Made by a program: the position numbers and the translations under genes
DNA from: a virus
Virus genome (UHGV): UHGV-0194232
Reading direction: 5' to 3' (one strand)
DNA: 15,734 bases
In this document: one piece after another, positions 1 through 15,734 of the stretch
How positions within the stretch are numbered: position 1 is the first letter of the stretch
How the letters are laid out: every line of letters starts with the position of its first letter
Notes under the pieces: model-generated
Told to the model about the DNA's origin: nothing
What the model saw: only the letters and a program-made list of their open reading frames with translations
Database searches by the model: none

Positions 1-982
1 GAATATTTTTTAATGCTGTCGCCACACCATTCTGGAAACGAAATACATGCTGACCATTCGCATAAACATCCAGAATACCATCACCGTTTTGTTTTATACC
101 TGTATCGTTATCCCCGAAAGCAATTGAGTTACCGCCCAGTGCGTTCTGAACACCGATACCCAGCGCACCATTCACCTGTGAACCACCGCCAACAGACACT
201 TTGTGCGACATGGATATTTCACCCGTCCGCAAATTTATGGTGAACGGACGCAGGGGACCAATATCGCCATTCTCGCCCTGACCTTCACTGGTAGGAATAA
301 GGTGCAGGCACTCTTCCGAACGACGAAAAATCAGACCAAAGGCTTCGTTGAAAATCCTCAGCGCATTAACACCACGGATTTTCAGTTCCCCGCTCATGGT
401 GTCACCATCACGCTGAACGGCATTTTTTGCCTTGTCCACCGTGGGTTTTAATCCGAGGTTTTCAACAGCCTCATCCTTGTCTTCCACATCCGAAAGATTC
501 TTTTTTCGTTGCAGATAGCGTCTGTCTCCGGTTTCCTGAGTAATAATGGCCCTGTCCGGATCAACTTCCAGCACCACGTTTTGTGCGTGCGTCAGCCCAA
601 GAACCAGCGTCAGAATAACTTCCTTGATAACGGAGTCCGTCTGGTCTGGTAAAAAGGTGTCGGGATAACGTCCGTAGGCGATAAGCGTACCTCTGTCGCT
701 GATCATCCCCAGTTCACGAAGGGTTTTACCGGGGTATGATTTACAGTCAATCACAATATCCCCGCTGATGAAACCCTCCTCCACCGCACCGTCGGAAAAG
801 GGTTCCTGCCCGAATGCGCCGTACAACGATGTCATTGCTGCCATTTCATCCGGCGTGGATGGCAATGCCCGCCCGCCCCCGTCACCAAGCAGAACATGCC
901 GGACGGTCACGGTTTGCCCGTTCTGATATGCTGATTCAATTTCTGCCGCGCCAGCTGTCGTCAGGGTTAATCCTGATGCCAT
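1..982 (-). CDS. H: Tail fibre protein, P2 gpH-like; partial (N-terminal 327 codons, 3' end lies beyond the left edge of the window)
   Basis: Not in the ORF track because it has no in-window stop. Manual minus-strand translation from ATG at 982..980 gives MASGLTLTTAGAAEIESAYQNGQTVTVRHVLLGDGGG... and, at the window edge, ...ALGGNSIAFGDNDTGIKQNGDGILDVYANGQHVFRFQNGVATALKNI. Both stretches match recalled P2 gpH (N-terminal TTAGAAKLA...MAVGDGGG; internal ALGGSSIVLGDNDTGFKQNGDGILDVYANSQRVFRFQNGVAIAFKNIQ). A GAGGTG Shine-Dalgarno lies about 10 nt upstream of the ATG. Confidence 0.8.
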   Translation of the reverse strand, partial: MASGLTLTTAGAAEIESAYQNGQTVTVRHVLLGDGGGRALPSTPDEMAAMTSLYGAFGQEPFSDGAVEEGFISGDIVIDCKSYPGKTLRELGMISDRGTLIAYGRYPDTFLPDQTDSVIKEVILTLVLGLTHAQNVVLEVDPDRAIITQETGDRRYLQRKKNLSDVEDKDEAVENLGLKPTVDKAKNAVQRDGDTMSGELKIRGVNALRIFNEAFGLIFRRSEECLHLIPTSEGQGENGDIGPLRPFTINLRTGEISMSHKVSVGGGSQVNGALGIGVQNALGGNSIAFGDNDTGIKQNGDGILDVYANGQHVFRFQNGVATALKNI

Positions 983-1004: not shown

Positions 1005-3416
1005 TCAGTCCGTCAGCTGCGGACAGTCATAAAACGTTTCTGATACTGATGCCGGGGACGGAAACTTCGTCATAAACGTCGACCGGCTTCCTGTCACCCG
1101 GTGGCAGTTTTTGAACAACGCGCTCAGGTTACAGCCTGCCGGGAATTTCTCTGTGAAAATATCGTTAATATCCATCTCCAGCGAATTACAGCCTGTAAAT
1201 GTGGCCATCAGGGAAATTGCGCTGGTTTGCGGAGCAATCAGGCCAGTCGGGATCCGGCGCAGCGCCACACACCCCTGAAACATTTTTTCCGGGTCGTTGA
1301 TCCTGCTTCCGGCAAACAACACCTCCTGAATTTCCTCCAGCGAAGCGCAGGACGCAAACAACATCCAGGTTCTGGTCAGACTGTTGCATCCGGCAAGCAT
1401 ATCGTCCGGCAGACGGCGAAGGGCTCTGCACCCCTTGAATGTCCCGACCATCGCTTTCAGCGAACGACACCCAGAAAGCATCCCGCCCCCGATACTCTCC
1501 AGCGACAGACAACCATCAAAAAGGTAATTGCACTGTTCGAGACGTACTGCATCCGCCAGCAGATTTTTCCCTGCTTTAACCAGATTTGTACACCCGCAAA
1601 ATACCGTCATACACGACGTCAGGTTTCTGGCGTTCATGAAAACAGCCTCTCCCACCGAAACCAGTGATGTACAGTTCTCAAAACACCGGTCAATCACCTT
1701 GCATTCCGGCAAACCGGCTAACAGGCGATCAGGTATATACTGCAACCCTGTACAACCACGAAACGTCATGGATAAGTTGCCAATACGATTTTTTATTCCG
1801 TCAAAATATCCCGCAGGCAACAGAGTGAGCCCACTGCATGACTCAAATGTCCGGTTAAAGGTTACCTGTAGCCGGTTTTCCCCTTCCCCCGGCAACAGTT
1901 CCGGCAGTTCCGACAGGGACTGACAGTTATAAAACGCCTCCGAAAGCGATGTTATTCTGCGGGTGGGGATACGCGGTGCCACGGCAAGTCGTTTGCAGCC
2001 ATAGAACGCCGATGTCAGACTTTCCAGATTTTCTGCCGGCTCCAGTAATCCCGCCGGCACTTCCGTCAGGGCTGCGCAGCCATAAAACAACTGAGAAAAA
2101 TTTGTCGCCATGCGGGCGGACAAAAACATCCCCTCCGGCACCACCGTCAGCCGGGTACAGCCATAAAACACGGCGTAAAACGACGTCACTGACGGGCAGC
2201 CGGCAAACAGATTTTCCGGCAAATCCGTCAGCGCAGTACAGCCACGAAACGCACGTGCAAACGTGGTGACCTTTTCCAGAGTGTCAAACGCCCCTGCATG
2301 AATTTTTCGCAGCGCATTCTGCGTGTTGGCAAATCCTTCCATACTGGTGCGGGTGCCACTGATTTCGATAATCTCAAGCAATGAACAGGTTACCGGTGAC
2401 GTACTTCGGTAGAACATCAGGCTTTCACAGTTCCTGACCGTCAGCGTCACTTCCTCCCCTGACGTCAGGGGGCGGGTGGCCATGACTGAATTCCCTGAAA
2501 TCGTGTAATCCCTGCCTGCCACACCATCGCCGTAATCAATGGTAAAATCGGTGTCTCTGCTGTCATCGATTAAGAACAGCGGTCTGCTCACACTGTCAAT
2601 GCGCACCACAACACGGGCTACCGCCACCACTTTTACAGCCAGCGTGGCAGCCACCCCGTTTGACGTCATGACACTCACTGTTGTGGCTCCGCACTGCCTG
2701 GCGGTCAGGGTGATGACATCGCCATCAACCTGTATATCAGCCACACGCTCGTCTGCCAGGTGGACAGTGAAGGAGCGGTCTTCGGCGATTAGTGGCAATA
2801 TCGTCACCTGTACGGACGCCGTTTCACCGGGTGCCAGTTGCACACTGTCCGGCGACAACAGGATCTGTGATGGCATGATTTTATTTTTCAGTTTTTCCGT
2901 CGCCGTCACATAACCATAACCATATCCGTTCCCCCGGCAGTTTCCATAAACGTGAATACTGAACCAGCTGCGCAGATTTTTGGCCCGTAGTACGGCATGT
3001 TTCAAATCCTGGTGGTCGCTCATCAGAACCGGCAGATCCTTCTGCTCCACATTCAGCCGGAAGGTATAAGGATCTCCCGGTGGCGTCTGCTCATACCACT
3101 CCACAATCTGCGACCGGAACGGACTGTCTGCCAGGGATTCATTCAGTGCGGCTTTTGTTCCCCTGTGACGATGGATATAGGCAGCACGTTTTATCGCTGC
3201 CCTTTTTTCCGCCTCTGTCCAGTGCTCATTCCAGGTATCCACTGACATTTCCCAGGCCAGCCATGGCAGCAATTCCGTCGGACATAAATCGGGATTTTTG
3301 ACATAGCGGATCAGACAGACCGCGATTTCCGCCAGCATATCACCGGCGGTACTGTCCACCACCCGCTCTGCCCGGCTGGCGCTGACCGGTAGTATGCTTC
3401 TGATTTTGTCATTCAT
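1005..3416 (-). CDS. I: Baseplate wedge protein, P2 gpI-like N-terminal domain fused to a C-terminal Ig-like domain plus BspA-type leucine-rich repeats (803 aa)
   Basis: ORF 1005..3416, ATG at 3416 overlapping the gpJ stop (ATGAATGA). The N-terminal ~175 aa align with recalled P2 gpI (NPDLCPTELLPWLAWEMSVDTW vs NPDTCPANLLPWLAWAFSVDRW; PPGDPYTFRL vs DPPGTFRL). Residues ~180-260 look like a bacterial Ig-like fold (LAPGETASVQVTILP...TVSVMTSNGVAATLAVKV). Residues ~340-803 carry about 20 repeats of an F-x-G-C-x-x-L-x-x-hP motif (AFRGCTALTDLP, VFYGCTRLTVVP, LFYGCAALTEVP, AFYGCKRLAVAP, AFYNCQSLSELP, TFRGCTGLQYIP ...). Confidence 0.85.
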   Translation of the reverse strand: MNDKIRSILPVSASRAERVVDSTAGDMLAEIAVCLIRYVKNPDLCPTELLPWLAWEMSVDTWNEHWTEAEKRAAIKRAAYIHRHRGTKAALNESLADSPFRSQIVEWYEQTPPGDPYTFRLNVEQKDLPVLMSDHQDLKHAVLRAKNLRSWFSIHVYGNCRGNGYGYGYVTATEKLKNKIMPSQILLSPDSVQLAPGETASVQVTILPLIAEDRSFTVHLADERVADIQVDGDVITLTARQCGATTVSVMTSNGVAATLAVKVVAVARVVVRIDSVSRPLFLIDDSRDTDFTIDYGDGVAGRDYTISGNSVMATRPLTSGEEVTLTVRNCESLMFYRSTSPVTCSLLEIIEISGTRTSMEGFANTQNALRKIHAGAFDTLEKVTTFARAFRGCTALTDLPENLFAGCPSVTSFYAVFYGCTRLTVVPEGMFLSARMATNFSQLFYGCAALTEVPAGLLEPAENLESLTSAFYGCKRLAVAPRIPTRRITSLSEAFYNCQSLSELPELLPGEGENRLQVTFNRTFESCSGLTLLPAGYFDGIKNRIGNLSMTFRGCTGLQYIPDRLLAGLPECKVIDRCFENCTSLVSVGEAVFMNARNLTSCMTVFCGCTNLVKAGKNLLADAVRLEQCNYLFDGCLSLESIGGGMLSGCRSLKAMVGTFKGCRALRRLPDDMLAGCNSLTRTWMLFASCASLEEIQEVLFAGSRINDPEKMFQGCVALRRIPTGLIAPQTSAISLMATFTGCNSLEMDINDIFTEKFPAGCNLSALFKNCHRVTGSRSTFMTKFPSPASVSETFYDCPQLTD

Positions 3417-7382: not shown

Positions 7383-8411
7383 TTATTTCACCTGAACCAC
7401 CACAAACGCGTCAGGATCCGGCAACACCATCAACGGCGCAGACTGCGTCATGGTATATTCGCAACCAGGATCACCCACCTCCAGCCAGTGTTTTGGATAA
7501 CGAATTGCAGAGGTGATCCCTTCACTCAGCGCCTGATTATCCTGAATGGCACCATAACAACGGACGCCTTCCGCCTGAGTATTCCCCAGAATCAGTGTAC
7601 CTTCCGGCAGATAACGCTGTTCATCCCCGTTTTCGTCAACATACGTTGTCTTCGCCACAACAATGGCCAGATCACCGTAATACCCCTTAAAAGAGACCAC
7701 TGAGCCCAGATCTTTCAGCGCGGTTTCCAGTTCCGATTTTGAACCACGACGGGTATCCAGTTTTTCACGGAAAAGCTTAAAGCCATTCAGCATACGCCAG
7801 ACCGTGCCATCCATAATCGCGATATTGATGGTCCCTGAGGCAAAATCGCAGTACGCATCCAGATCGTGCGTTGGATCAAAGGTGTCAGCATTCTGCTGTG
7901 ACCATTCGCGTCCGCCAGCCTGCGTAATGTTATTGACGGCAGAGCGCCCAAAATCCACTTCCACCGTCTCAAACTGTTCCCCGCTCATGGTGTACTTCCC
8001 CTGCAGAACGGCACTGACCGCCTGCATTTCTTCCACCTGCACAATCGCCTGCTCTTCCTGCTTCAGGTTGTCAGTCAGAATACGCAGGCGGCGGTAGGCC
8101 GGGTCATTAAGACGGGCCGGATCTTCCCCCGGCAGACGTTCCACTGCCTGCTGATAATCAAAGCGGTGTTTTGGTTTTACATAACCGGGACGTAACACGC
8201 GGGTTTCACCACCACGGCTGCGCAGCACTTTGCCTGACACCACCGGAGACACATACGCCGCAACCGGTGTTTTGCCGGTAATTTTATCCAGCATGACTTC
8301 CTGAGTATGGAAAGTGATCGTGCGACGAAAGAACAGCTCCAGAAACAGCGCACGAAATTTCACTTTCTGCTCGGTGTACCCGAGTAACTGACGCGTGGTA
8401 AATAACCCCAT
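7383..8411 (-). CDS. E: Major capsid protein, lambda gpE-like (342 aa)
   Basis: Full-length collinear similarity to recalled lambda gpE, including identical blocks AIVQVEEMQAVSAVL, LRPGYVKPKH-type motif, DTRRGSKSELETA and TQSAPLM. Length 342 vs 341 aa in lambda. Confidence 0.95.
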   Translation of the reverse strand: MGLFTTRQLLGYTEQKVKFRALFLELFFRRTITFHTQEVMLDKITGKTPVAAYVSPVVSGKVLRSRGGETRVLRPGYVKPKHRFDYQQAVERLPGEDPARLNDPAYRRLRILTDNLKQEEQAIVQVEEMQAVSAVLQGKYTMSGEQFETVEVDFGRSAVNNITQAGGREWSQQNADTFDPTHDLDAYCDFASGTINIAIMDGTVWRMLNGFKLFREKLDTRRGSKSELETALKDLGSVVSFKGYYGDLAIVVAKTTYVDENGDEQRYLPEGTLILGNTQAEGVRCYGAIQDNQALSEGITSAIRYPKHWLEVGDPGCEYTMTQSAPLMVLPDPDAFVVVQVK

Positions 8412-8434
8412 AATTTATTTTCCTTCAGAAACAC

Positions 8435-8462
8435 AAACGGGCCGCATCGCGACCCGTTTTTT
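8435..8462 (-). terminator. Stem-loop between D and E, terminator-like in both orientations (possible attenuator)
   Basis: Inverted repeat aaacgggccgc/gcgacccgttt (8435-8459) giving roughly an 8-bp stem with one G:U pair. A T6 run follows on the plus strand (8457-8462) and UUUGUGUUUCU follows on the minus strand. Confidence 0.35.
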
Positions 8463-8480
8463 CAGTCAATCACTTCACCA

Positions 8481-8816
8481 TCAGGCGTGGCTGATGGCAC
8501 TTCCCACAAATGCGTTGGCTTTTTTCACCGCATCCACAGAGTCAGGCCAGACCAGCGACTCAGTGGCAAACGTACCGCTTTTGTAGTACGTCAGTGTGGG
8601 TTCTGTTCCGGCAAGCGCCAGAGCCAACACGCCCACTGCCGTTCCGGCTTTCTGACCATCCCATGCCACCAGTTTGCCGGTGGCGTCATCCAGCATCAGT
8701 GGCGTCAGTGCAGGCGTGGCAGCACTGATACCACTGGTGGCTGTTGCGGTATGCGCCGGATCGCTTCCGGCAAAAATATGCACATCCGCGCGCTTTTCTG
8801 TGGTTGTTTTAATCAT
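8481..8816 (-). CDS. D: Head decoration protein, lambda gpD-like (111 aa)
   Basis: [22 protein letters not shown] and YKSGTF motifs are collinear with recalled lambda gpD. AGGAGA Shine-Dalgarno 8 nt upstream of ATG 8816. Confidence 0.95.
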
Positions 8817-8854
8817 TTTTCAGTCTCCTGATTTATCTGAATCACGGATAACGC

Positions 8855-9565
8855 TTACGGCATACTCATCAGCAGATCTTCTTCTCCGTGCCCGGCAGTT
8901 CCGCCTCCGGAAACCGCACTGGCAGCATGCTGTGCCATAAAGCGATCAAAAAGTGTTTCCTGTGACGGTTGCGATGCCGCCGGTGCGGCTGCCAGCAACG
9001 TTTTCGCCTGCGCCACCGTCATTCCCGGTTGTTCTGCCAGTGCCTGTGCAAGTTGCTTGCGCCCTTTCGCCTCCGGCAGCGCCATAATCTGATCGCCGAC
9101 ACTTGGAGAACCGGCAACCGGTGCCGCCGCCAGTAACGTTTTTGCCTGGTCAACGGTCATTCCCGGCTGTTCAGCCAGCGCCTGCGCGAGTTGTTCACGC
9201 CCTTTAGCTTCCGGCAACGCCATAATCTGATCGCCTGTGCCTGCAGCACCGGCAGCAGGGGCTGCCGCCAGAAACGCTTTCGCCTGCTCCACCGTCATCC
9301 CCGGTTGACCTGCCAGCATCTGTGCCAGTTGCTCACGCCCCTTTGCTTCCGGCAGCGCCATAATCTGATCACCCGTGCTGTCAGTACCGGCAACCGGCGC
9401 AGCTGCAAGCAACGTTTTCGCCTGCTCAACCGTCATTCCAGGCTGACCTGCCAGCATTTGCGCCAGTTGCTCGCGCCCTTTCGCCTCCTGACAATTCAGG
9501 ATCCCCATCACGCGCTGATTTTCCTGGGCCACCGCTTCAGCAACGGTGAGATTTTTAACAGTCAT
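8855..9565 (-). CDS. Nu3-like scaffolding protein, in-frame nested within the 3' part of C (236 aa)
   Basis: Internal ATG at 9565 (MTVKNLTVAEAV...) is preceded by a strong AAGGAG Shine-Dalgarno at about 5 nt. By analogy with lambda Nu3, which is translated in-frame from inside C. The region contains the MGILNC and GMTV motifs seen in the lambda C/Nu3 C-terminus. Confidence 0.5.
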   Translation of the reverse strand: MTVKNLTVAEAVAQENQRVMGILNCQEAKGREQLAQMLAGQPGMTVEQAKTLLAAAPVAGTDSTGDQIMALPEAKGREQLAQMLAGQPGMTVEQAKAFLAAAPAAGAAGTGDQIMALPEAKGREQLAQALAEQPGMTVDQAKTLLAAAPVAGSPSVGDQIMALPEAKGRKQLAQALAEQPGMTVAQAKTLLAAAPAASQPSQETLFDRFMAQHAASAVSGGGTAGHGEEDLLMSMP

Positions 9566-10471
9566 TGCATTCTCCTTCGTAACAGAGTCATTCAGTGCAG
9601 AAACCATCACTTCAACGGCATCTGCAGCATTAATCAGTTGATCAGCCAGGCCTGCATCAATGCCTGCCTGACCGTCATAAACGGCAGCCTCAGTATTCAT
9701 CACCGCCTCTGAACTCAGCCCCGTATAAAGCGCCACTTTGTCGACAAACATCCGGCGGGCCTCATCAATACGGCGCTGAAAATCTGCACGCACACCTGCC
9801 GGCAATGCCTGAATACTGTTGCCGTCAACCTTGTGCTGCCCGGAGTAAATCAGCGTGATATCCACCCCTTCCTGTGCCAGTTGTTTCTCGTAACTGGTGT
9901 GCGCCATCATCACACCAATCGAACCAATTTTTGCCGTCTGCGTGACCAGCCGACGCGTACAGGCTGCCGCCAGCAACATGGCGGCTGAACAGGCCATATC
10001 ATTACACAGCGCCCACACGGGCTTCTGTTCCCGCAGGCGGTAAATCATGTCAGCACAGTCAAACGCCCCGGCAGCCTGACCGCCCGGGCTGTCGATATCC
10101 AGCAAAATGCCGCGCACATCCGGATCATTCACCGCCATCTGAAGACGGGCCGTCAGGCCGTCATAGCCTGTCATGCCGGAGTAAGGGCGCAGGGTACCCA
10201 GTTTATGCACCAGCGTGCCGCTCACCGGCAGAATGGCGATGCCATTCTTCACCTGGTAACTCTTTGCCGGACGCTGACCGCCCGCCATATAGTCAGTCAC
10301 AGCCAGTTGCATACCATCAGCATCAAGCTGAACAGCCTGCTGAGGAACGGCAAGGCTGCCGGCCCCCATCTCTTTACCCAGCGCGCAAAAGAAAACCCGC
10401 GCATAGGCGGGTTCCAGTAAAAGCGGCTCATTAAATGCCATGGCGGCAATATGCGATAAATTACGACGCAT
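8855..10471 (-). CDS. C: Prohead protease / minor capsid protein, lambda gpC-like (S49 peptidase family), 538 aa with an expanded repeat-containing C-terminus
   Basis: N-terminal ~300 aa align with recalled lambda gpC (HIAAMAFNEPLLLEPAYARVFFCAL vs HIASMAFNEPLMLEPAYARVFFCAL; VTQTAKIGSIGVMMAH; ITLIYSGQHKVDGN). The ATG at 10471 overlaps the portal stop. It is about 100 aa longer than lambda C because of the tandem repeats. Confidence 0.9.
   Translation of the reverse strand: MRRNLSHIAAMAFNEPLLLEPAYARVFFCALGKEMGAGSLAVPQQAVQLDADGMQLAVTDYMAGGQRPAKSYQVKNGIAILPVSGTLVHKLGTLRPYSGMTGYDGLTARLQMAVNDPDVRGILLDIDSPGGQAAGAFDCADMIYRLREQKPVWALCNDMACSAAMLLAAACTRRLVTQTAKIGSIGVMMAHTSYEKQLAQEGVDITLIYSGQHKVDGNSIQALPAGVRADFQRRIDEARRMFVDKVALYTGLSSEAVMNTEAAVYDGQAGIDAGLADQLINAADAVEVMVSALNDSVTKENAMTVKNLTVAEAVAQENQRVMGILNCQEAKGREQLAQMLAGQPGMTVEQAKTLLAAAPVAGTDSTGDQIMALPEAKGREQLAQMLAGQPGMTVEQAKAFLAAAPAAGAAGTGDQIMALPEAKGREQLAQALAEQPGMTVDQAKTLLAAAPVAGSPSVGDQIMALPEAKGRKQLAQALAEQPGMTVAQAKTLLAAAPAASQPSQETLFDRFMAQHAASAVSGGGTAGHGEEDLLMSMP
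8978..9487 (-). repeat. In-frame tandem repeat, 138-bp unit (46 aa), about 3.7 copies, inside the scaffold domain of C/Nu3
   Basis: Protein unit ALPEAKGREQLAQ(M/A)LA(G/E)QPGMTV(E/D/A)QAK(T/A)(L/F)LAAAP(V/A)AG...GDQIM occurs four times. At DNA level the landmark gccataatctgatc recurs at 9083, 9221 and 9359 (period 138). Copies are about 80% identical by eye. Lambda C has a single copy of the corresponding segment. Confidence 0.85.
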
Positions 10472-12032
10472 CGCCTTTTCCTCCCGTTGTCTGTCGGATC
10501 TGCTGCTGAAACGTATCCTTTATCCAGATGGGGCGGGGAAGACCGGCAGCCTGTCGCTCCTGGCTTTCACGCAGTTGCTGGCGGAAAATCTCCTGATAGT
10601 CATCTCCCATCAGGGCCAGCTCCTTCTCGTATGTACTCAGGCCACCTTCAATACGCATCACCGCCTCCTGCACCTCCTTAAGGCCATCAATCGCCATGCG
10701 GCCGGCACCAATCCACTCGGCACGACACCACCCGGAACGGGCCTCCCAGAATGAGAAACGGGATTTCGGCGGGCGGATCACACCGCGAATAAGGGCTTCC
10801 TCCAGCCAGCAGGCAAACATCTGTGATGCCAGACGGCTGGCCACAAATTTTCGTTTCCCCATAAAATACCGCCACGACTCATTGGCGGATGCCCTGGCAC
10901 TGGAATAACTGACCTGTGAATAATCACGGGAAAGTTGCTCATAGGACACGCCCAGTCCGGCAGCAATGTAACGTAACAGCGCCTTTTCCAGTTCAGAGAA
11001 ACCATTATCCGCATTCTGTGCTGTCTGCAGATTCAGTGAATCCCCCGGATAAAGATGCGGAATACGAACCCCACCCATCTTTACCGTATTGGTGGCGTAA
11101 TAGCGCGCATACCCTTTCATGATGGTGTTCAGGGGATTTTTACCGCCATCTCCCACCCCGGCGATATATTCAAATGCTTTTTCCGAATCCAGTGTGGATT
11201 CAATCGTCGCGGCATACATCGCCCGCACCACCGCCGACTGCAGTTGCGTGGCCTGTAGTGTGTCGAGCATCTTGAGGCGCTCCATCACGGAATAAAACTG
11301 GTTGGCCCCGCGCGTCTGTCCGTCCTCCTGCGGCTGAAACACATGGATCATTCCCGGTCGCCCGGAGGGCAGCGTCGCCGCAATCCGTGTCCAGTTGCTG
11401 ACACCGTAGCCAGGCCAGTCATCGTCCTGAACATGATAAGCCATCGCCTTTCCGTGACGGTTGATTTCCACTCCGGCACGCATAAAACGATCGCCGATGC
11501 CATAACCGGGCGTGCTGACGCGCTTCGGACTGATGGTCTTGAATTTTGTTCTGAATAATGACGTGGATTCCGTATCCCATACGGGCTGGACAAAAATTTC
11601 ACCGTTAAAAGTATGGACCCCCACCCCTTCACGAATAAATTCGGTAAACGAGCGACGCCCTTCCACATCCATCGAACCAAATACCGGATCGCAATATTCC
11701 ATCCACGCCGCCTCCACATCTTCAATAAAGGCATGCGAATCAGCTTCTGACATCCCCAGCCAGCGCCAGTTGGGTCGGTAGCTCAGGCGAAACATGTGAC
11801 CGACGATATGGTCTTTATGAATTTCCACAGCATTTGCGGCAATACCGTTGTTACGGACCAGATCGTCCGCACGGGCGTTACCCAGCTGAATGGAAGGTAA
11901 GAGCGCCACATCAGCACTTTCCGGTGCTGGCAACCATTCAGCCAGTTGCCCACCGAATCCGGAGCCGCCGCCGGAATATCCCATACTCTGCCGCAAAGGT
12001 TGCCCGTGAAGATCCACCAGTCCCCCGCTCAC
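10461..12032 (-). CDS. B: Portal protein, lambda gpB-like (523 aa)
   Basis: Collinear with recalled lambda gpB (GGGSGFGGQL, GNARADDLVRNNG, FRTKFKTISPKR, DGQTRGAN, LRYIAAGLGVSYEQLSR, GRMAIDGLKEVQEAVM). Starts with GTG at 12032, with AGGAG about 8 nt upstream; overlaps the W stop. Confidence 0.95.
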   Translation of the reverse strand: MSGGLVDLHGQPLRQSMGYSGGGSGFGGQLAEWLPAPESADVALLPSIQLGNARADDLVRNNGIAANAVEIHKDHIVGHMFRLSYRPNWRWLGMSEADSHAFIEDVEAAWMEYCDPVFGSMDVEGRRSFTEFIREGVGVHTFNGEIFVQPVWDTESTSLFRTKFKTISPKRVSTPGYGIGDRFMRAGVEINRHGKAMAYHVQDDDWPGYGVSNWTRIAATLPSGRPGMIHVFQPQEDGQTRGANQFYSVMERLKMLDTLQATQLQSAVVRAMYAATIESTLDSEKAFEYIAGVGDGGKNPLNTIMKGYARYYATNTVKMGGVRIPHLYPGDSLNLQTAQNADNGFSELEKALLRYIAAGLGVSYEQLSRDYSQVSYSSARASANESWRYFMGKRKFVASRLASQMFACWLEEALIRGVIRPPKSRFSFWEARSGWCRAEWIGAGRMAIDGLKEVQEAVMRIEGGLSTYEKELALMGDDYQEIFRQQLRESQERQAAGLPRPIWIKDTFQQQIRQTTGGKGDAS

Positions 12033-12238
12033 AGTCGTACTCCTGCAGGGCCACGGCGACGACCGGACATTCCAAGCGCACTTTCAATTTCCTCAATATA
12101 TCGCCGTAATTCATTAATCGTCGCCCGCGAATACTGTATCTGTCGTCCGTTCTTACTGACAGAAGCCACAGCACGCCCGATCATCAGTTCATGCAGCGCC
12201 CGACGCGCTTCGCAAAGCATCTCATGTGTATAAATCAT
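12029..12238 (-). CDS. W: Head-tail connector / DNA stabilisation protein, lambda gpW-like (69 aa)
   Basis: ARRALHELMIGRAVASVSKNGRQIQY...RRRGPAGV matches recalled lambda gpW ([26 protein letters not shown]...RRRGPAGF). ATG at 12238 with GGAGGA 6 nt upstream. Confidence 0.85.
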   Translation of the reverse strand: MIYTHEMLCEARRALHELMIGRAVASVSKNGRQIQYSRATINELRRYIEEIESALGMSGRRRGPAGVRL

Positions 12239-12241
12239 CAC

Positions 12242-14158
12242 TTATCCTCCACTCAGTGCAGCCGCAATTTCTTCCAGACTCATATCATCCTCATCCTGCT
12301 CATCTCTTCGTGCCCGGGCCAGTGCCTCAAGGTCCAGTTGCCATCGTTGAACTGAAATACGCAGGGCAGCATAGGCATATACCAGGCAGTCGAGGGCTTC
12401 ATTGCGTCGCCCTTTTTTATCCCACAGCAGTTTCACCCTGCCATTAACCACCTTCTCCACCAGTTCTTCCGCCACGATTTGACGCGCCTCTTCTTCCGAA
12501 AAAATGTCCGGGTTATCCGGAAAGCGGAAGGTATACGGGGCGGCTTCACTGGCAGAAACCACCGGCAGGGCAAAACGGGCGTACAGCATTTCCTTGACGG
12601 TATCGGAGCCCACCTCACACAAAAACACACCACGCTGGTTACGCTTTTTGGGCATGGTGATCACCGGCTTGCCGTACACCGATGCCCCTTTAATGGGAAG
12701 CACAAAAAAAGTGCCGTGTTTTCTGGAACGCTGATACACAATGTCCTGGTCAATACCACCGGTATCCCAGCAGACACGGGAAATGGAAATTTCAGTACCG
12801 TCAGCATGGCGGTATTTTTTCCGGATCACCGCATCAACACGTTTAAGGGTGTCCTCGTCTTCCGGTCGCCCCATGATAATTTGCTTGTCAATCAGAAAGG
12901 CTTCTTCGCCAGGAGCCCAGCCCCAGACATAAATTTCATAGCGATCTTTCTGGGAGTCGATCCCGGCGGTCAGGTAAACCACCCGCAGGGGAACCTGCGC
13001 GCCATAGTGACAGACCTTTTCCAGCAATAACTCGAAACTCAGCTTTTCTGCCACAGCCTCTTCATAGGGCTCCCCGAGTGTGGTGTTAATAAACGTCTTG
13101 ACGCCGTTCGGATCCTTCAGCGCATCCAGCCAGTCGTAGACAATCTGCACCCAGGTGGTGAACGGACTGTACGCCGTCCAGATGTGGTACGAGATTGAGC
13201 GTGGTGGCGGCATCTCCTCATCACCGGCGCTGTAAAATGTCAGGCCGTCACGCGTCCACATCCCGGTATTGTCACAAATCCAGCGTCCGTCGGTCTGGTC
13301 AAGTTCCGACTGCCGGATCACACAGCCATTATGTTCACACAGGTAATACACCGTTTCCGGTTTACCCTTCTCCCATTTCAGGCCAAACGGCGTCGCATCA
13401 TCGCCAAACTTCAGATACTGGGTCTCCCCGCAATGAGGGCAAGGGACATAAAACCGCATGAAATGCGCAGATTCATTCGTGGCTTTCTCAATCTGGCAGG
13501 AGCCTTTAATTTTTGGCGTTGAGCCGCGTATGGATTTAGGCCATACCGAGCCTTCGATACGTTTATCGCCAAGCAACGTCGGCGAACCTTCTTTTTCCAC
13601 ATCCGGTTCAAACGAGGAGAGTTCGTCATAGCAGACCACATCCACAGATTTTTCACGGTAGTTTTTAGCAGCGGCACCACCCAGGCACCAGAAACCCACG
13701 CCGGAGGAAAAACGCTTCAGGGTGAGTGTATTATCGCGGTGCTTTCTTCCGAACCATGGAGCCAGCTCCAGCAATGCAGGGACATCCCTTATCGTTGGCT
13801 CAACATGAGATTTCATGAAATCTTCTGCAGCAGAATCTGTTGGCTGAAAAAGCAGACTGTTACGGGATTTATGCTCAATAAAATAAGCCTCCACCCCCAA
13901 CAGCATTTTGGTGTAACCAACGCGCGCCGATTTAATCAGATTAACAGTGCGGATCCGGTCATTTCCCATGCTGTTCATAATGGCGATCTGAAACGGCAGT
14001 GTTTCCCATTGCCCGGGGGTATATGAAGACTCTTTCGGCAGATAATAATGTCGATCAGCCCACTGAACTGTCGTCAGTGGAACCGGAATATTGAGAGATA
14101 AAAGCCCTGTGACTATCGCACCGGCTGCATTAGCTGCCTTCTGTGCGTCTGAAATCAT
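12242..14158 (-). CDS. A: Terminase large subunit, lambda gpA-like (638 aa)
   Basis: Extensive collinear identity with recalled lambda gpA ([156 protein letters not shown]). Start chosen at ATG 14158: it has an AGGTGGA Shine-Dalgarno and gives a lambda-like N-terminal length. ATG 14200 (ORF track) has no Shine-Dalgarno. Confidence 0.95.
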
Positions 14159-14678
14159 CAATCCACCTGCCCACGTTTTCACCGGCTTTAGCTGCAACAT
14201 TGGAGGCTTTTGCGATTTCAGTTTTCACCACATCAAGGTGTGACGGTGAAATATCCGGATATTTACGCTGTAATGTCAGCGGCACTCGTACAAGTATTCC
14301 CGAAATCTCCTGAGCCACACGTTGCAGAATGAAGGTAAACAATTCCGTTTCCAGCACCAGCCCTTCTTCGCGGGCATTTTTCAGCTCCTGTGCGTCAGCC
14401 TGTGCTTTTGTGAGCCGGTAGCGTTCATAGTCAATGGTGCCGGGTTGTAAATCTGATTCTGCAGCCGCACGCAAGTCTTCCAGTTCTTTGCGGAGCTTTT
14501 CGTTTTCGATATCTTTTTCCCGCTGCGCATACCACTCAATGGCTTCTGCAGTATTGAACATGGCCTCGATGCCTTTGCCTCCCCCCGACAAAATTCTCAG
14601 CCCCTGACTTTGCCAGCCAGTGATTGTTCTGACATCGCACTCAAAAATCTCCGCCAGTTTCTTTTTGTTAACCTTCAT
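14130..14678 (-). CDS. nu1: Terminase small subunit, lambda gpNu1-like (182 aa)
   Basis: [12 protein letters not shown]...[10 protein letters not shown]...GGGKG...IENEKLR...[28 protein letters not shown] matches recalled lambda Nu1 nearly collinearly. ATG at 14678 with GAGGG about 9 nt upstream. The 3' end overlaps the A start, as in lambda. Confidence 0.95.
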
Positions 14679-14699: not shown

Positions 14700-14812
14700 G
14701 AAGAAAGGATCTCAAAACGCTTTTTTCAGCGAAAAATTACCGCTGCCAGATCCTTTCTTTTTTTCAAGAAAATCATATTAAACAACAGGTTAGCCAGAAG
14801 AAGAACGGATCT
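14700..14812 (-). promoter_or_regulatory. cosB-like terminase binding region with three R-type repeats (R1, R2 inverted, R3)
   Basis: agaaaggatct (14702-14712) and its inverted copy agatcctttct (14748-14758), plus agatccgttcttcttc (reverse complement of 14797-14812). These are positioned like lambda R1/R2/R3 (CGTTTCCTTTCT, GAAAGGAAACG, CGTTTCCGTTCTTCTTCG) relative to the Nu1 start. The adjacent 19-mer GCTATTTATGAAAATTTTC (reverse complement of 14824-14842) is identical to lambda sequence just right of cosN, as recalled. Confidence 0.65.
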
Positions 14813-14853
14813 GCTTTTTCCCTGAAAATTTTCATAAATAGCGCGTTTTTGCG

Positions 14854-14865
14854 CGTACGCGTACC
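14854..14865 (-). other. Candidate cosN (predicted 12-nt cohesive end GGTACGCGTACG, minus-strand orientation)
   Basis: A gapless alignment anchored on the conserved GCTATTTATGAAAATTTTC block puts lambda cosN (GGGCGGCGACCT) onto this 12-mer. It is centred on a perfect 10-bp palindrome GTACGCGTAC, consistent with the two-fold symmetry of terminase nicking sites. Distance to the Nu1 ATG is about 180 bp, as in lambda. Confidence 0.4.
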
Positions 14866-15084
14866 CTCGGTGTTTCAGATTCCGGAAAGGACCCGCACAA
14901 ATGGGAGCGTTTATCATTAACATTTACAGATAAGATGACGTACATCATTGAAACGCCATTCAGCCATATACCGGCAGCATTCGTAGTTGCACTCCGTAAC
15001 TCTGCGACTAAGGTTAAAAACATGGCCCTCTTTTGCCACCGGCAAATCTTCAATGGATTTCCCCTGCCGGTTTTTTATTTCTCA

Positions 15085-15123
15085 CATTACAGCAGCCCCT
15101 TAGAGTGAAGGGCTGCTGTAATG
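15085..15123. other. Strong stem-loop (14-bp stem, 11-nt loop) directly 3' of the 130 aa gene
   Basis: cattacagcagccc (15085-15098) pairs with gggctgctgtaatg (15110-15123). A T-run precedes it on the plus strand (15071-15080), but no U-run follows it in either transcript orientation. Confidence 0.5.
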
Positions 15124-15127
15124 CCTG

Positions 15128-15520
15128 TTACTCACGAATCAGGCGAGCACTCTTACTATTCATTTCAATACGCGAATACTGCGGTTTACCATAAATGATG
15201 TCTGTCATTACGAACACCTCACCCGGCTGCAGTTCAACTGCACCTTCCGGTAATTTCATACCAGCAAATACCGGACAGCCCGGATGGCGATCATCTTCTG
15301 TTGCTTCCAGCATTGACTCACCAAACCACGCCGTTGTGGCGCGACCATCAGCAGCCTTGTAGTGGATCAAGTACTGGTTTTCGCCATCCGCATACTGCGC
15401 GCGAGCTTTAACCTCACCCCATTCATCACTGATGCGCATCTCCACCAGTTGTGACAGTTCAAACTTAAACGGAACAGCCACAGCACCAATTACCATTGGT
15501 TTGTCTTCTTTCTTTTCCAT
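15128..15520 (-). CDS. Hypothetical protein (130 aa) at the cos-proximal right end of the phage genome
   Basis: ORF 15128..15571; start chosen at ATG 15520 (MEKKEDKPMVIG...) because of an AGGAG Shine-Dalgarno 7 nt upstream; the upstream ATG at 15571 lacks one. Same strand as all other genes. No homolog recognised. Confidence 0.55.
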   Translation of the reverse strand: MEKKEDKPMVIGAVAVPFKFELSQLVEMRISDEWGEVKARAQYADGENQYLIHYKAADGRATTAWFGESMLEATEDDRHPGCPVFAGMKLPEGAVELQPGEVFVMTDIIYGKPQYSRIEMNSKSARLIRE

Positions 15521-15734
15521 TATCTTCTCCTGATATCGAAGCCCGTCACCGCCCCGGGCGCTGATCAACATTTGAGTTTTCGCGGCGACAGAAAGAATTT
15601 ATTTTATTGAGTAGCCACAAACACAGAATTTCATGCTTTCCGGACGCCGGCGCATCCTTCATTTTTCAGCAAAATATTCTGCTCTTACAGGCGATCAGTT
15701 CTGCATACACTGCCGAACACCGTCGACAATTTCA

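Follow-up and report, generated by a model that had tools for sequence, protein, structure and literature searches.

Which terminase specificity, and which cohesive ends, belong to the cos site carried by UHGV virus genome UHGV-0194232? The cos site of lambda is the textbook model for the recognition and cutting of DNA by a viral terminase, and a first-pass annotation of this 15,734-nt viral sequence (the whole of which is referred to here as the window) had proposed a cos of the lambda type in which both the R sites and the predicted cohesive end differ from those of lambda. Based on the analysis described below, positions 14701–14894 on the minus strand are probably a working lambda-type cos of a phage 21-like prophage, with recognition of the Gifsy-1 class, predicted ends of 12 nt and inner cohesive-end bases that are free to vary. 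Throughout, window coordinates are those of the whole stretch, cos is read on the minus strand, and bp are numbered from the predicted left end of cosN.

Layout of the cos site

The elements are found in the lambda order, namely cosQ, cosN, I2, R3, I1, an inverted R2 and R1, followed by the genes for Nu1- and gpA-family terminase subunits. The cosQ-like heptamer GGGTCCT, the packaging-termination element, lies at 14894→14888 and, after a gap of 22 nt, alignment places the predicted cohesive end of cosN, the 12-mer 5'-GGTACGCGTACG, at 14865→14854, with the top strand predicted to be nicked before 14865 and the bottom strand after 14854. The first-pass annotation had given the sequence of this 12-mer correctly but had set its end coordinate at 14866, which is one base too far. 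The 12-mer is separated by CGCAAAAACGC from a 19-mer, GCTATTTATGAAAATTTTC (14842→14824), that represents the AT-rich I2 spacer between cosN and cosB, a segment described in PMC4856287, and this 19-mer is indeed identical to lambda bp 24–42. A motif scan combined with positional matching located R3 (AGATCCGTTCTT, the G variant), the critical site of TerS binding by which TerL is placed on cosN, at 14812→14801 (bp 54–65), R2 (AGATCCTTTCTT) on the plus strand at 14748–14759, inverted with respect to R3 and R1, and R1 (AGATCCTTTCTT) at 14712→14701. A putative I1-like site for integration host factor (IHF), TAACCTGTTGTTT, with one mismatch to YAANNNNTTGATW, is at 14792→14780 (bp 74–86). The 15.7-kb window has just three copies of the R motif AGATCCKTTCTT, all of them at cos, against an expectation of 0.12, and none of 200 shuffled windows reached that number.

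The claims that the layout is that of lambda and that the three R-type repeats are placed as in lambda cosB hold, with R3 and I1 at the lambda positions and R2, R1 and the start of the small terminase gene (TerS) displaced by 1–3 bp. R3 is at bp 54–63 in both the window and lambda, R2 is at bp 109–118 compared to 110–119 in lambda, and R1 is at bp 154–163 compared to 156–165. The IHF-like site starts at bp 74, as do its equivalents in lambda and phage 21, and the TerS ATG at 14678 corresponds to bp 188, where lambda has 191 and phage 21 has 189. In phage 21, R3 is at bp 54, I1 at bp 74 and R1 at bp 154, matching the window, and the GenBank record of phage 21 annotates the same series of sites, with I1 in the corresponding place. 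In Gifsy-1, R3, R2 and R1 are at bp 54, 110 and 155, respectively. Lambda shares with the window the architecture, the spacing, the cosQ heptamer, the I2 19-mer, a partial two-fold symmetry centred on bp 6|7 and the single G/T difference, at the same position, that distinguishes R3 from R2 and R1. The heptamer is nearly invariant among relatives: it shows no pairwise difference among the E. coli-type loci, and the value for the Gifsy-1-type set, which includes one locus with the variant GGGGCCT, is 0.015.

Recognition class of the R sites and small terminase

The repeat core had been read as AGATCC(T/G)TTCT in place of the CGTTTCC(T/G)TTCT of lambda, and this is correct; in R3 the two differ only at bp 54–56 (AGA in the window, GTT in lambda). 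Alignment also confirmed that the recognition region of the Nu1 homologue is unlike the RTIQNWQEQG of lambda, the window helix having Thr20, Gly21 and Ser24 where the lambda helix has Gln, Asn and Glu. Genetic work has identified R3 bp 56 as the contact of TerS residue 24 (PMC9026076) and has traced the discrimination between lambda and phage 21 to this base pair together with TerS residues 20 and 24.

Related loci (designated by L numbers) were gathered by the I2-R3 pattern, by the right flank of cosN, by both cosN flanks or by TerS identity alone. Across approximately 90 loci the R3 core covaries strictly with the TerS recognition helix, and four recognition classes can be distinguished: CGTTTCC with RTIQNWQEQG (lambda), CRTGTCGG, i.e. 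C(G/A)TGTCGG, with RTIERWQSQG (phage 21), CATGTCAG with RTIDRWQTQG, and CAGATCC with RT[IV]T[GSAT]WQ[SN]QG. The last helix occurs in six variants, all with Thr20 and a small residue at position 21. Every TerS inspected next to an AGATCC R3 has Thr20, and a lambda-type or phage 21-type helix was found there in no case. The window, with core CAGATCCG, has neither the C(G/A)TGTCGG core nor the RTIERWQSQG helix of phage 21 and fits the Gifsy-1 class, which has AGATCC(G/T)TTC in R3, R2 and R1 and the helix RT(I/V)T-x-WQSQG. The covariation of R3 core and helix supports the earlier suggestion that the packaging specificity has co-evolved.

It might be argued that the differences in R sites and helix are functionally neutral, in which case the window terminase and cosB could stand in for their phage 21 or lambda counterparts, and the reverse, and there would be no separate specificity. 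The N15 terminase packages lambda DNA although the sequences differ, lambda TerS discriminates poorly in vitro, and the 3' half of the R-core, TCCGTTCTT, is common to the window and lambda. However, R3 core and helix are strictly associated over some 90 loci, and the changed sites include bp 56 and TerS positions 20 and 24, the genetic determinants of discrimination between lambda and phage 21. In addition, the DNA-binding domain and cosB have been swapped as one module, as set out in the next section. Hence, we regard neutrality as improbable and favour a distinct specificity in vivo, of the Gifsy-1 class.

A phage 21-type terminase with an exchanged DNA-binding domain

The small terminase, TerS (14130–14678, minus strand; 182 aa), belongs to the Nu1 family (Pfam PF07471, E = 4.7e-85), and the large terminase, TerL (12242–14158, minus strand), is of the gpA family, with ATPase and endonuclease domains (Pfam PF05876 and PF20454), and is predicted to nick cosN. 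Phage 21 has the closest characterised terminase. For TerS the identity to phage 21 gp1 is 88 % and that to lambda Nu1 is 52 %, while TerL shares 82 % identity with phage 21 gp2 and 65 % with lambda gpA. The identity is unevenly distributed. The winged helix-turn-helix (HTH) domain at the N-terminus of TerS is of the AGATCC type found in Gifsy-1 and E. coli prophages, and the protein is phage 21-like only from approximately residue 46, its C-terminal, TerL-binding part being nearly identical to that of phage 21. By our count from the alignment, 17 of the 22 differences from the phage 21 TerS fall within residues 1–55, which form the winged-HTH DNA-binding domain, and the DNA match to phage 21 begins only at window position 14543. 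Because the differences cluster at the N-terminus and the DNA match starts where it does, the locus holds a phage 21-type terminase whose DNA-binding domain was exchanged, and the adjoining cosB with it. Phage 21 itself differs in R-core and helix, as noted above, and has the canonical cosN, GGGCGGCGACCT.

The source type of the exchanged module is not new. Gifsy-1 has R3 AGATCCGTTC at bp 54–63, an inverted R2 AGATCCTTTC and a direct R1, i.e. the same R-core as the window, as well as the same cosQ and order of elements, and its helix, RTVTAWQSQG, is of the same Thr20/Ser24 family. The same R-core and RTVTAWQSQG helix were also found in 51 Gifsy-type loci. The closest PDB chain to the DNA-binding domain in the window is 7LXS, which is identical to the N-terminus of the Gifsy-type TerS over the residues in common; the other matches were the domains of phage 21 (7LWR) and lambda (7LW0 and 1J9I). 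Feiss and colleagues have listed Gifsy-1 among the cosBs of R3-I1-R2-R1 type and aligned its left end with those of lambda, phage 21 and N15 (PMC9026076, PMC4856287), and the AGATCC R-core with its TerS partner is therefore an already described Gifsy-1 type that is known in kind. Gifsy-1 differs from the window in its I1 region and in its cosN, GGGCGGCAGCGT, which has the canonical left half, CG flanks and a 23-nt cosQ gap. Its TerL is about 83 % identical to that of the window, and the first 69 residues of TerS are about 74 % identical.

A polymorphic family of cosN sequences

Published work has reported that the left half of the canonical cosN (GGGC...) and the CG dinucleotides flanking both nicks are conserved (PMC4669245, PMC9303873), that bp 7–12 vary and that the first four bases are common to lambda-like phages. 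The window instead reads GAG|GGTACG...ACG|CG, and its 12-mer departs from the lambda cohesive end at 8 of 12 positions, also in the reportedly conserved left half. The loci gathered in the four ways named above together gave approximately 20 different 12-mers in the frame GGGTCCT-22 nt-GG·······ACG-CGCAAAAAC, such that positions 3–9 vary, G1, G2 and the right-hand CG are kept and the left-hand CG is lost. In a set of loci chosen independently of cosN and its immediate flanks, the pairwise difference per site was 0.36 at positions 3–9, 0.00 at positions 1–2 and 10–12, and 0.02 at bp 13–28. Nine different 12-mers adjoin TerLs that are at least 97.8 % identical to the window TerL.

The 12-mer GGTACGCGTACG was found in L060, L090 and six of the seven places that were chosen only for an identical TerS, with at least four different upstream flanks among those, and it is therefore an established allele rather than a private mutation. 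A one-base variant of it, GGTACGTGTACG, also exists. The identical TerS is encoded in 80 collection blocks, and the prophage is carried by the assemblies behind L263–L268, for example GCA_029407445.1. Most E. coli prophages with the same module have other 12-mers, the commonest being GGTCTGGGGACG. The 12-mers were absent from the searchable literature, where only unrelated primer matches were found, though a prior description is possible as a dedicated survey (Vahanian et al. 2017) was not covered. Judged from its sequence, the cohesive end of the window would be a new allele of a polymorphic cosN family that departs from the published rule on the left half and CG flanks.

The rate at which the inner bases change raises a further question. 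Loci with no more than 2 differences at 88 flanking sites differ at 4 of the 12 cosN positions, and all four combinations of alleles at positions 5 and 8 occur among the listed alleles. On these grounds the inner seven bases may turn over faster than the surrounding genome, either through diversifying selection or through cos-specific mutation or heteroduplex shuffling, with the sticky end serving as a compatibility tag, but we put this forward only as a speculative reading that we think rather unlikely. According to Feiss, two mismatches in the cohesive ends reportedly carry a cost of about 4-fold. If the sticky end were a compatibility tag, chromosomes packaged between the cos sites of co-resident relatives would carry mismatched ends, at a cost in fitness, and lambda-like prophages and phage-inducible chromosomal islands (PICIs) that share one terminase type in one cell would be genetically isolated. 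In the same way, if the turnover is adaptive, cohesive-end compatibility would be a barrier between co-resident prophages. As a separate observation, the cosN core that is highly variable in the E. coli-type lineage is almost invariant in the Salmonella Gifsy-1-type lineage (pairwise difference per site of 0.015 at positions 3–9), despite the shared cosB class.

A similar cos is present in approximately 169 of 5426 complete E. coli genomes, with identity to the window cos region of no more than 94.4 % among the matches listed, and a pattern scan found the same R3 in 67 IMG/VR prophage contigs. E. coli prophages such as SerU-LTIIb (KU052038) have the same cosQ-cosN flanks, and the AGATCC cosB and TerS helix were the same in the inspected loci. 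A scan of the genome contig collection with the I2-R3 pattern gave no matches, and a looser pattern made from the cosN flanks gave nearly all chance matches in unrelated phyla, together with one locus from Escherichia whittamii.

Position of the predicted nicks

A 12-nt 5' end with the sequence GGTACGCGTACG is a reasonable prediction because the spacing of cosN and R3 is unchanged and because the dyad is centred where it should be. The distance from cosN to R3 is the same in the window, lambda, phage 21 and Gifsy-1. It has been reported that this spacing is critical and that the TerL endonuclease centres, which show little specificity for sequence, are placed by R3-bound TerS (PMC9026076). In each of three groups (E. 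coli-type, Gifsy-type and canonical), the aligned 12-mer has its best dyad centre after position 6, with six of eight symmetric pairs in the window.

Several points weigh against a working cos with Gifsy-1-class recognition and 12-nt ends. The context of the left nick is GAG|GG rather than the conserved CG|GGGC, and the gap from cosQ to the 12-mer is 22 nt rather than the 23 nt seen in lambda, phage 21 and Gifsy-1, so the nick in the top strand could lie one or two bases away. Nor is an exclusive specificity assured by distinct R sequences. Lambda TerS binds R sites weakly in vitro (PMC9026076), such that sequence logic alone is not decisive. Lastly, the phage collection, searched in near, distant and protein modes, contained no virion-derived genome with the window cosN; its relevant entries were Gifsy-1 and two prophage sequences, the SerU-LTIIb fragment and the prophage-coordinate record vB_EcoM-705R4. 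IdasGreatGrand was considered as a virion genome with the window cos and was rejected, as its TerS is similar but its cosB is of the phage 21 type and its cosN is canonical. Contigs ending at cosN were also sought as physical ends, but none of the inspected loci began or ended at the 12-mer, most of the IMG/VR matches being prophage cut-outs.

The first of these points leads to the possibility that the site is a functional cos that is nicked elsewhere, giving an overhang of 11, 13 or 14 nt, for instance with the top nick at CACCG|AGGG or at a position measured from cosQ. A left flank that is AG or GG in the window and relatives, where lambda has CG, and the 22-nt gap would both be accounted for, and a distant lambda-like phage is known to make 9-nt ends (PMC9303873). 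Yet the distance to R3, which positions the bottom nick, is identical in lambda, phage 21 and Gifsy-1, the dyad is centred on the aligned 12-mer, and the variation (which includes positions 3–6) is limited to positions 3–9 and so stays within that 12-mer. Moreover, phage 21, the TerL of which is 82 % identical to that of the window, makes 12-nt ends. A different overhang is therefore unlikely, and the aligned 12-mer is preferred as the predicted cohesive end.

Could cos instead be the relic of a defective prophage, and its unusual 12-mer a product of decay and not a working allele? No isolate from virions is known, SerU-LTIIb, the nearest record with a name, is what is left of a truncated prophage, and one E. 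coli relative has a frameshifted TerL. In the window, though, the packaging and head genes are all intact, and TerL is 98.1 % identical in amino acid sequence to that of L095 at approximately 93 % nucleotide identity, which indicates purifying selection. Furthermore, cosQ, the R sites, the spacing and the outer bases of cosN are invariant and only positions 3–9 vary, which is the pattern of a constrained site in use, and the allele recurs with different flanks. Decay is accordingly a quite improbable explanation.

The perfect 10-bp palindrome that had been reported in the aligned 12-mer is present (GTACGCGTAC, 14855–14864). A 10-mer as close to a palindrome arose in 42 of 200 shuffles of the window and is thus not rare, and it is of interest only because its centre coincides with the cosN dyad. 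The palindrome was rejected as a selected feature, since it is broken in the closest allele, GGTACGTGTACG, and the other alleles observed all lack one. Positions 2/11 and 3/10 are already symmetric in most alleles, and by our own estimate the other three pairs would match by chance in about 1 in 64 cases per allele, which makes one palindrome among approximately 20 alleles unremarkable. Hence, it is probably incidental. Two left overhangs could nonetheless pair over 10 contiguous bp with terminal G·G mismatches, at a computed energy of about −11.1 kcal/mol versus −15.6 kcal/mol for the proper left-right pairing, and such left-left pairing should be visible in vitro.

An open reading frame across cos

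A 65-aa open reading frame (ORF; 14726–14923, minus strand) overlaps the cos region, raising the question of whether the region encodes a small protein. The ORF is present in the window, and one GenBank record includes a coding sequence there, annotated as 'nu1: NU1-like protein' (KU052038.1, 6461–6679; SerU-LTIIb, L001). However, relatives have lost the start codon and have stops or frameshifts in the frame, six E. coli genomes have no gene at this place in their RefSeq annotation, and the pattern of conservation fits DNA sites and not codons. As the ORF is not conserved in relatives, it is not considered to be a gene, and the chance that it encodes a protein is negligible. The KU052038.1 coding sequence, which spans cosQ, cosN and cosB, is almost certainly a spurious ORF call.

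Exchange of cos modules

Several partners are joined to the cosQ-cosN module. The cosB can be of the AGATCC or the phage 21 type, the R3 position can be taken by at least four other sequences, and in some loci the TerS is not of the Nu1 family; the module also occurs in PICI-like elements. Conversely, the AGATCC cosB is associated with the canonical GGGCGGCGACCT in L020 and L065. Because each occurs with several partners of the other, the cosN allele and the cosB specificity reassort independently. Thus, cosB and the DNA-binding domain of TerS make up one exchangeable module, and cosQ-cosN is another.

The further sequences at the R3 position behind the same cosN module, of which there are at least four, include CCATGTCCGGTTTCC, CCACTTCCGGTTTTT, GGGGGTGGTTGTTGTTTAATTG and GGGTACACCACCACC, and were found in L084–L087, L092, L106, L108, L109, L115–L117, L120, L125, L129 and L132. 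In most of these loci the TerL that follows is 90–94 % identical to the window TerL. This suggests the existence of more uncharacterised packaging specificities.

The partner that is not of the Nu1 family is seen in vB_EcoM-705R4 (ON470624.1; L098 and L100), approximately 15 IMG/VR loci and the Escherichia whittamii locus (L154), all of which have the module CACCGAG GGTCGGTAGACG CGCAAAAAC with the same 12-mer. In loci of this type an unrelated leader starts at about bp 21 and is followed by a small terminase that belongs to phrog_57, and the gpA-family TerL is only 43 % identical to that of the window.

Proposed mechanism and significance

A working model can be drawn from lambda and phage 21. 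IHF would bend the DNA at I1, and a TerS dimer would span the bend to read R3 together with R2, R1 serving as an accessory site. The winged-HTH recognition helix, with Thr20, Gly21 and Ser24, would match the AGATCC R-core in the manner of the Gifsy-1 class, distinct from both lambda and phage 21. TerS bound at R3 would then keep two gpA-type TerL endonuclease centres, arranged symmetrically, in place over cosN, and nicks 12 bp apart would produce a left virion end predicted to be 5'-GGTACGCGTACG and a right one predicted to be 5'-CGTACGCGTACC, with cosQ (GGGTCCT) acting in the termination of packaging. TerL may need only the outer bases (G1 and G2, A10, C11 and G12, and the flanks), which would leave the inner seven free and fast-changing in the E. 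coli lineage.

The locus is a natural swap experiment, in which a phage 21-type terminase has a Gifsy-1-type DNA-binding domain and the matching cosB. The four classes of R site and helix make up a natural table that can serve as a guide for the engineering of specificity in cosmids and phage-based delivery and in PICI biology. The finding of at least nine inner sequences beside near-identical TerLs challenges the published rule for cosN and would narrow what the nuclease reads to the outer bases together with the geometry set by TerS. In practice, such ends will be overlooked by annotation and PhageTerm-style tools that look for GGGCGGCGACCT.

Neighbouring genes and related loci

In addition to the terminase, the minus-strand module in the window encodes gpW, a portal of the lambda family, an S49 protease/scaffold, a gpD-like decoration protein, a gpE-like capsid protein and FI. 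The head genes (7383–14678) are followed by tail genes of the P2 type (1005–3416, minus strand), which include an 803-aa protein that combines Tail_P2_I, Big_2 and LRR domains. Because a head module like those of lambda and phage 21 adjoins P2-type tail genes, the prophage is a hybrid with a lambda-type head and a contractile tail. The same head and tail layout, with sheath, tube and baseplate J/W/I genes, is present in vB_EcoM-705R4.

In four Gifsy-1-type loci (L027, L034, L035 and L045), TerS is frameshifted after codon 6 (MNVNKKNWLKF...), within a long run of A residues at the start of the gene, which could reflect either pseudogenisation or a homopolymer sequencing error. Three other loci, L113, L119 and L123, contain two inverted cos sites approximately 740 bp apart, both with non-canonical 12-mers (GGTAGCCATACG and GGTACGTGTACG). 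Of these loci, L113 alone was inspected; its sites are at 492–521 (plus strand) and 1229–1258 (minus strand) and flank a 146-aa winged-HTH ORF that resembles the Rpp proteins of PICIs. The arrangement looks like the two-cos arrangement reported for PICIs of the EcCICFT073 type.

The slot just upstream of cos is occupied in the window by a 147-aa ORF (15128–15571, minus strand; phrog_1935, no Pfam match). After it comes a hairpin at approximately 15087–15121 with a perfect 12-bp stem, TTACAGCAGCCC...GGGCTGCTGTAA, for which the terminator scan gave no call. In SerU-LTIIb, the LT-IIb enterotoxin genes occupy the slot where the window has the 147-aa ORF.

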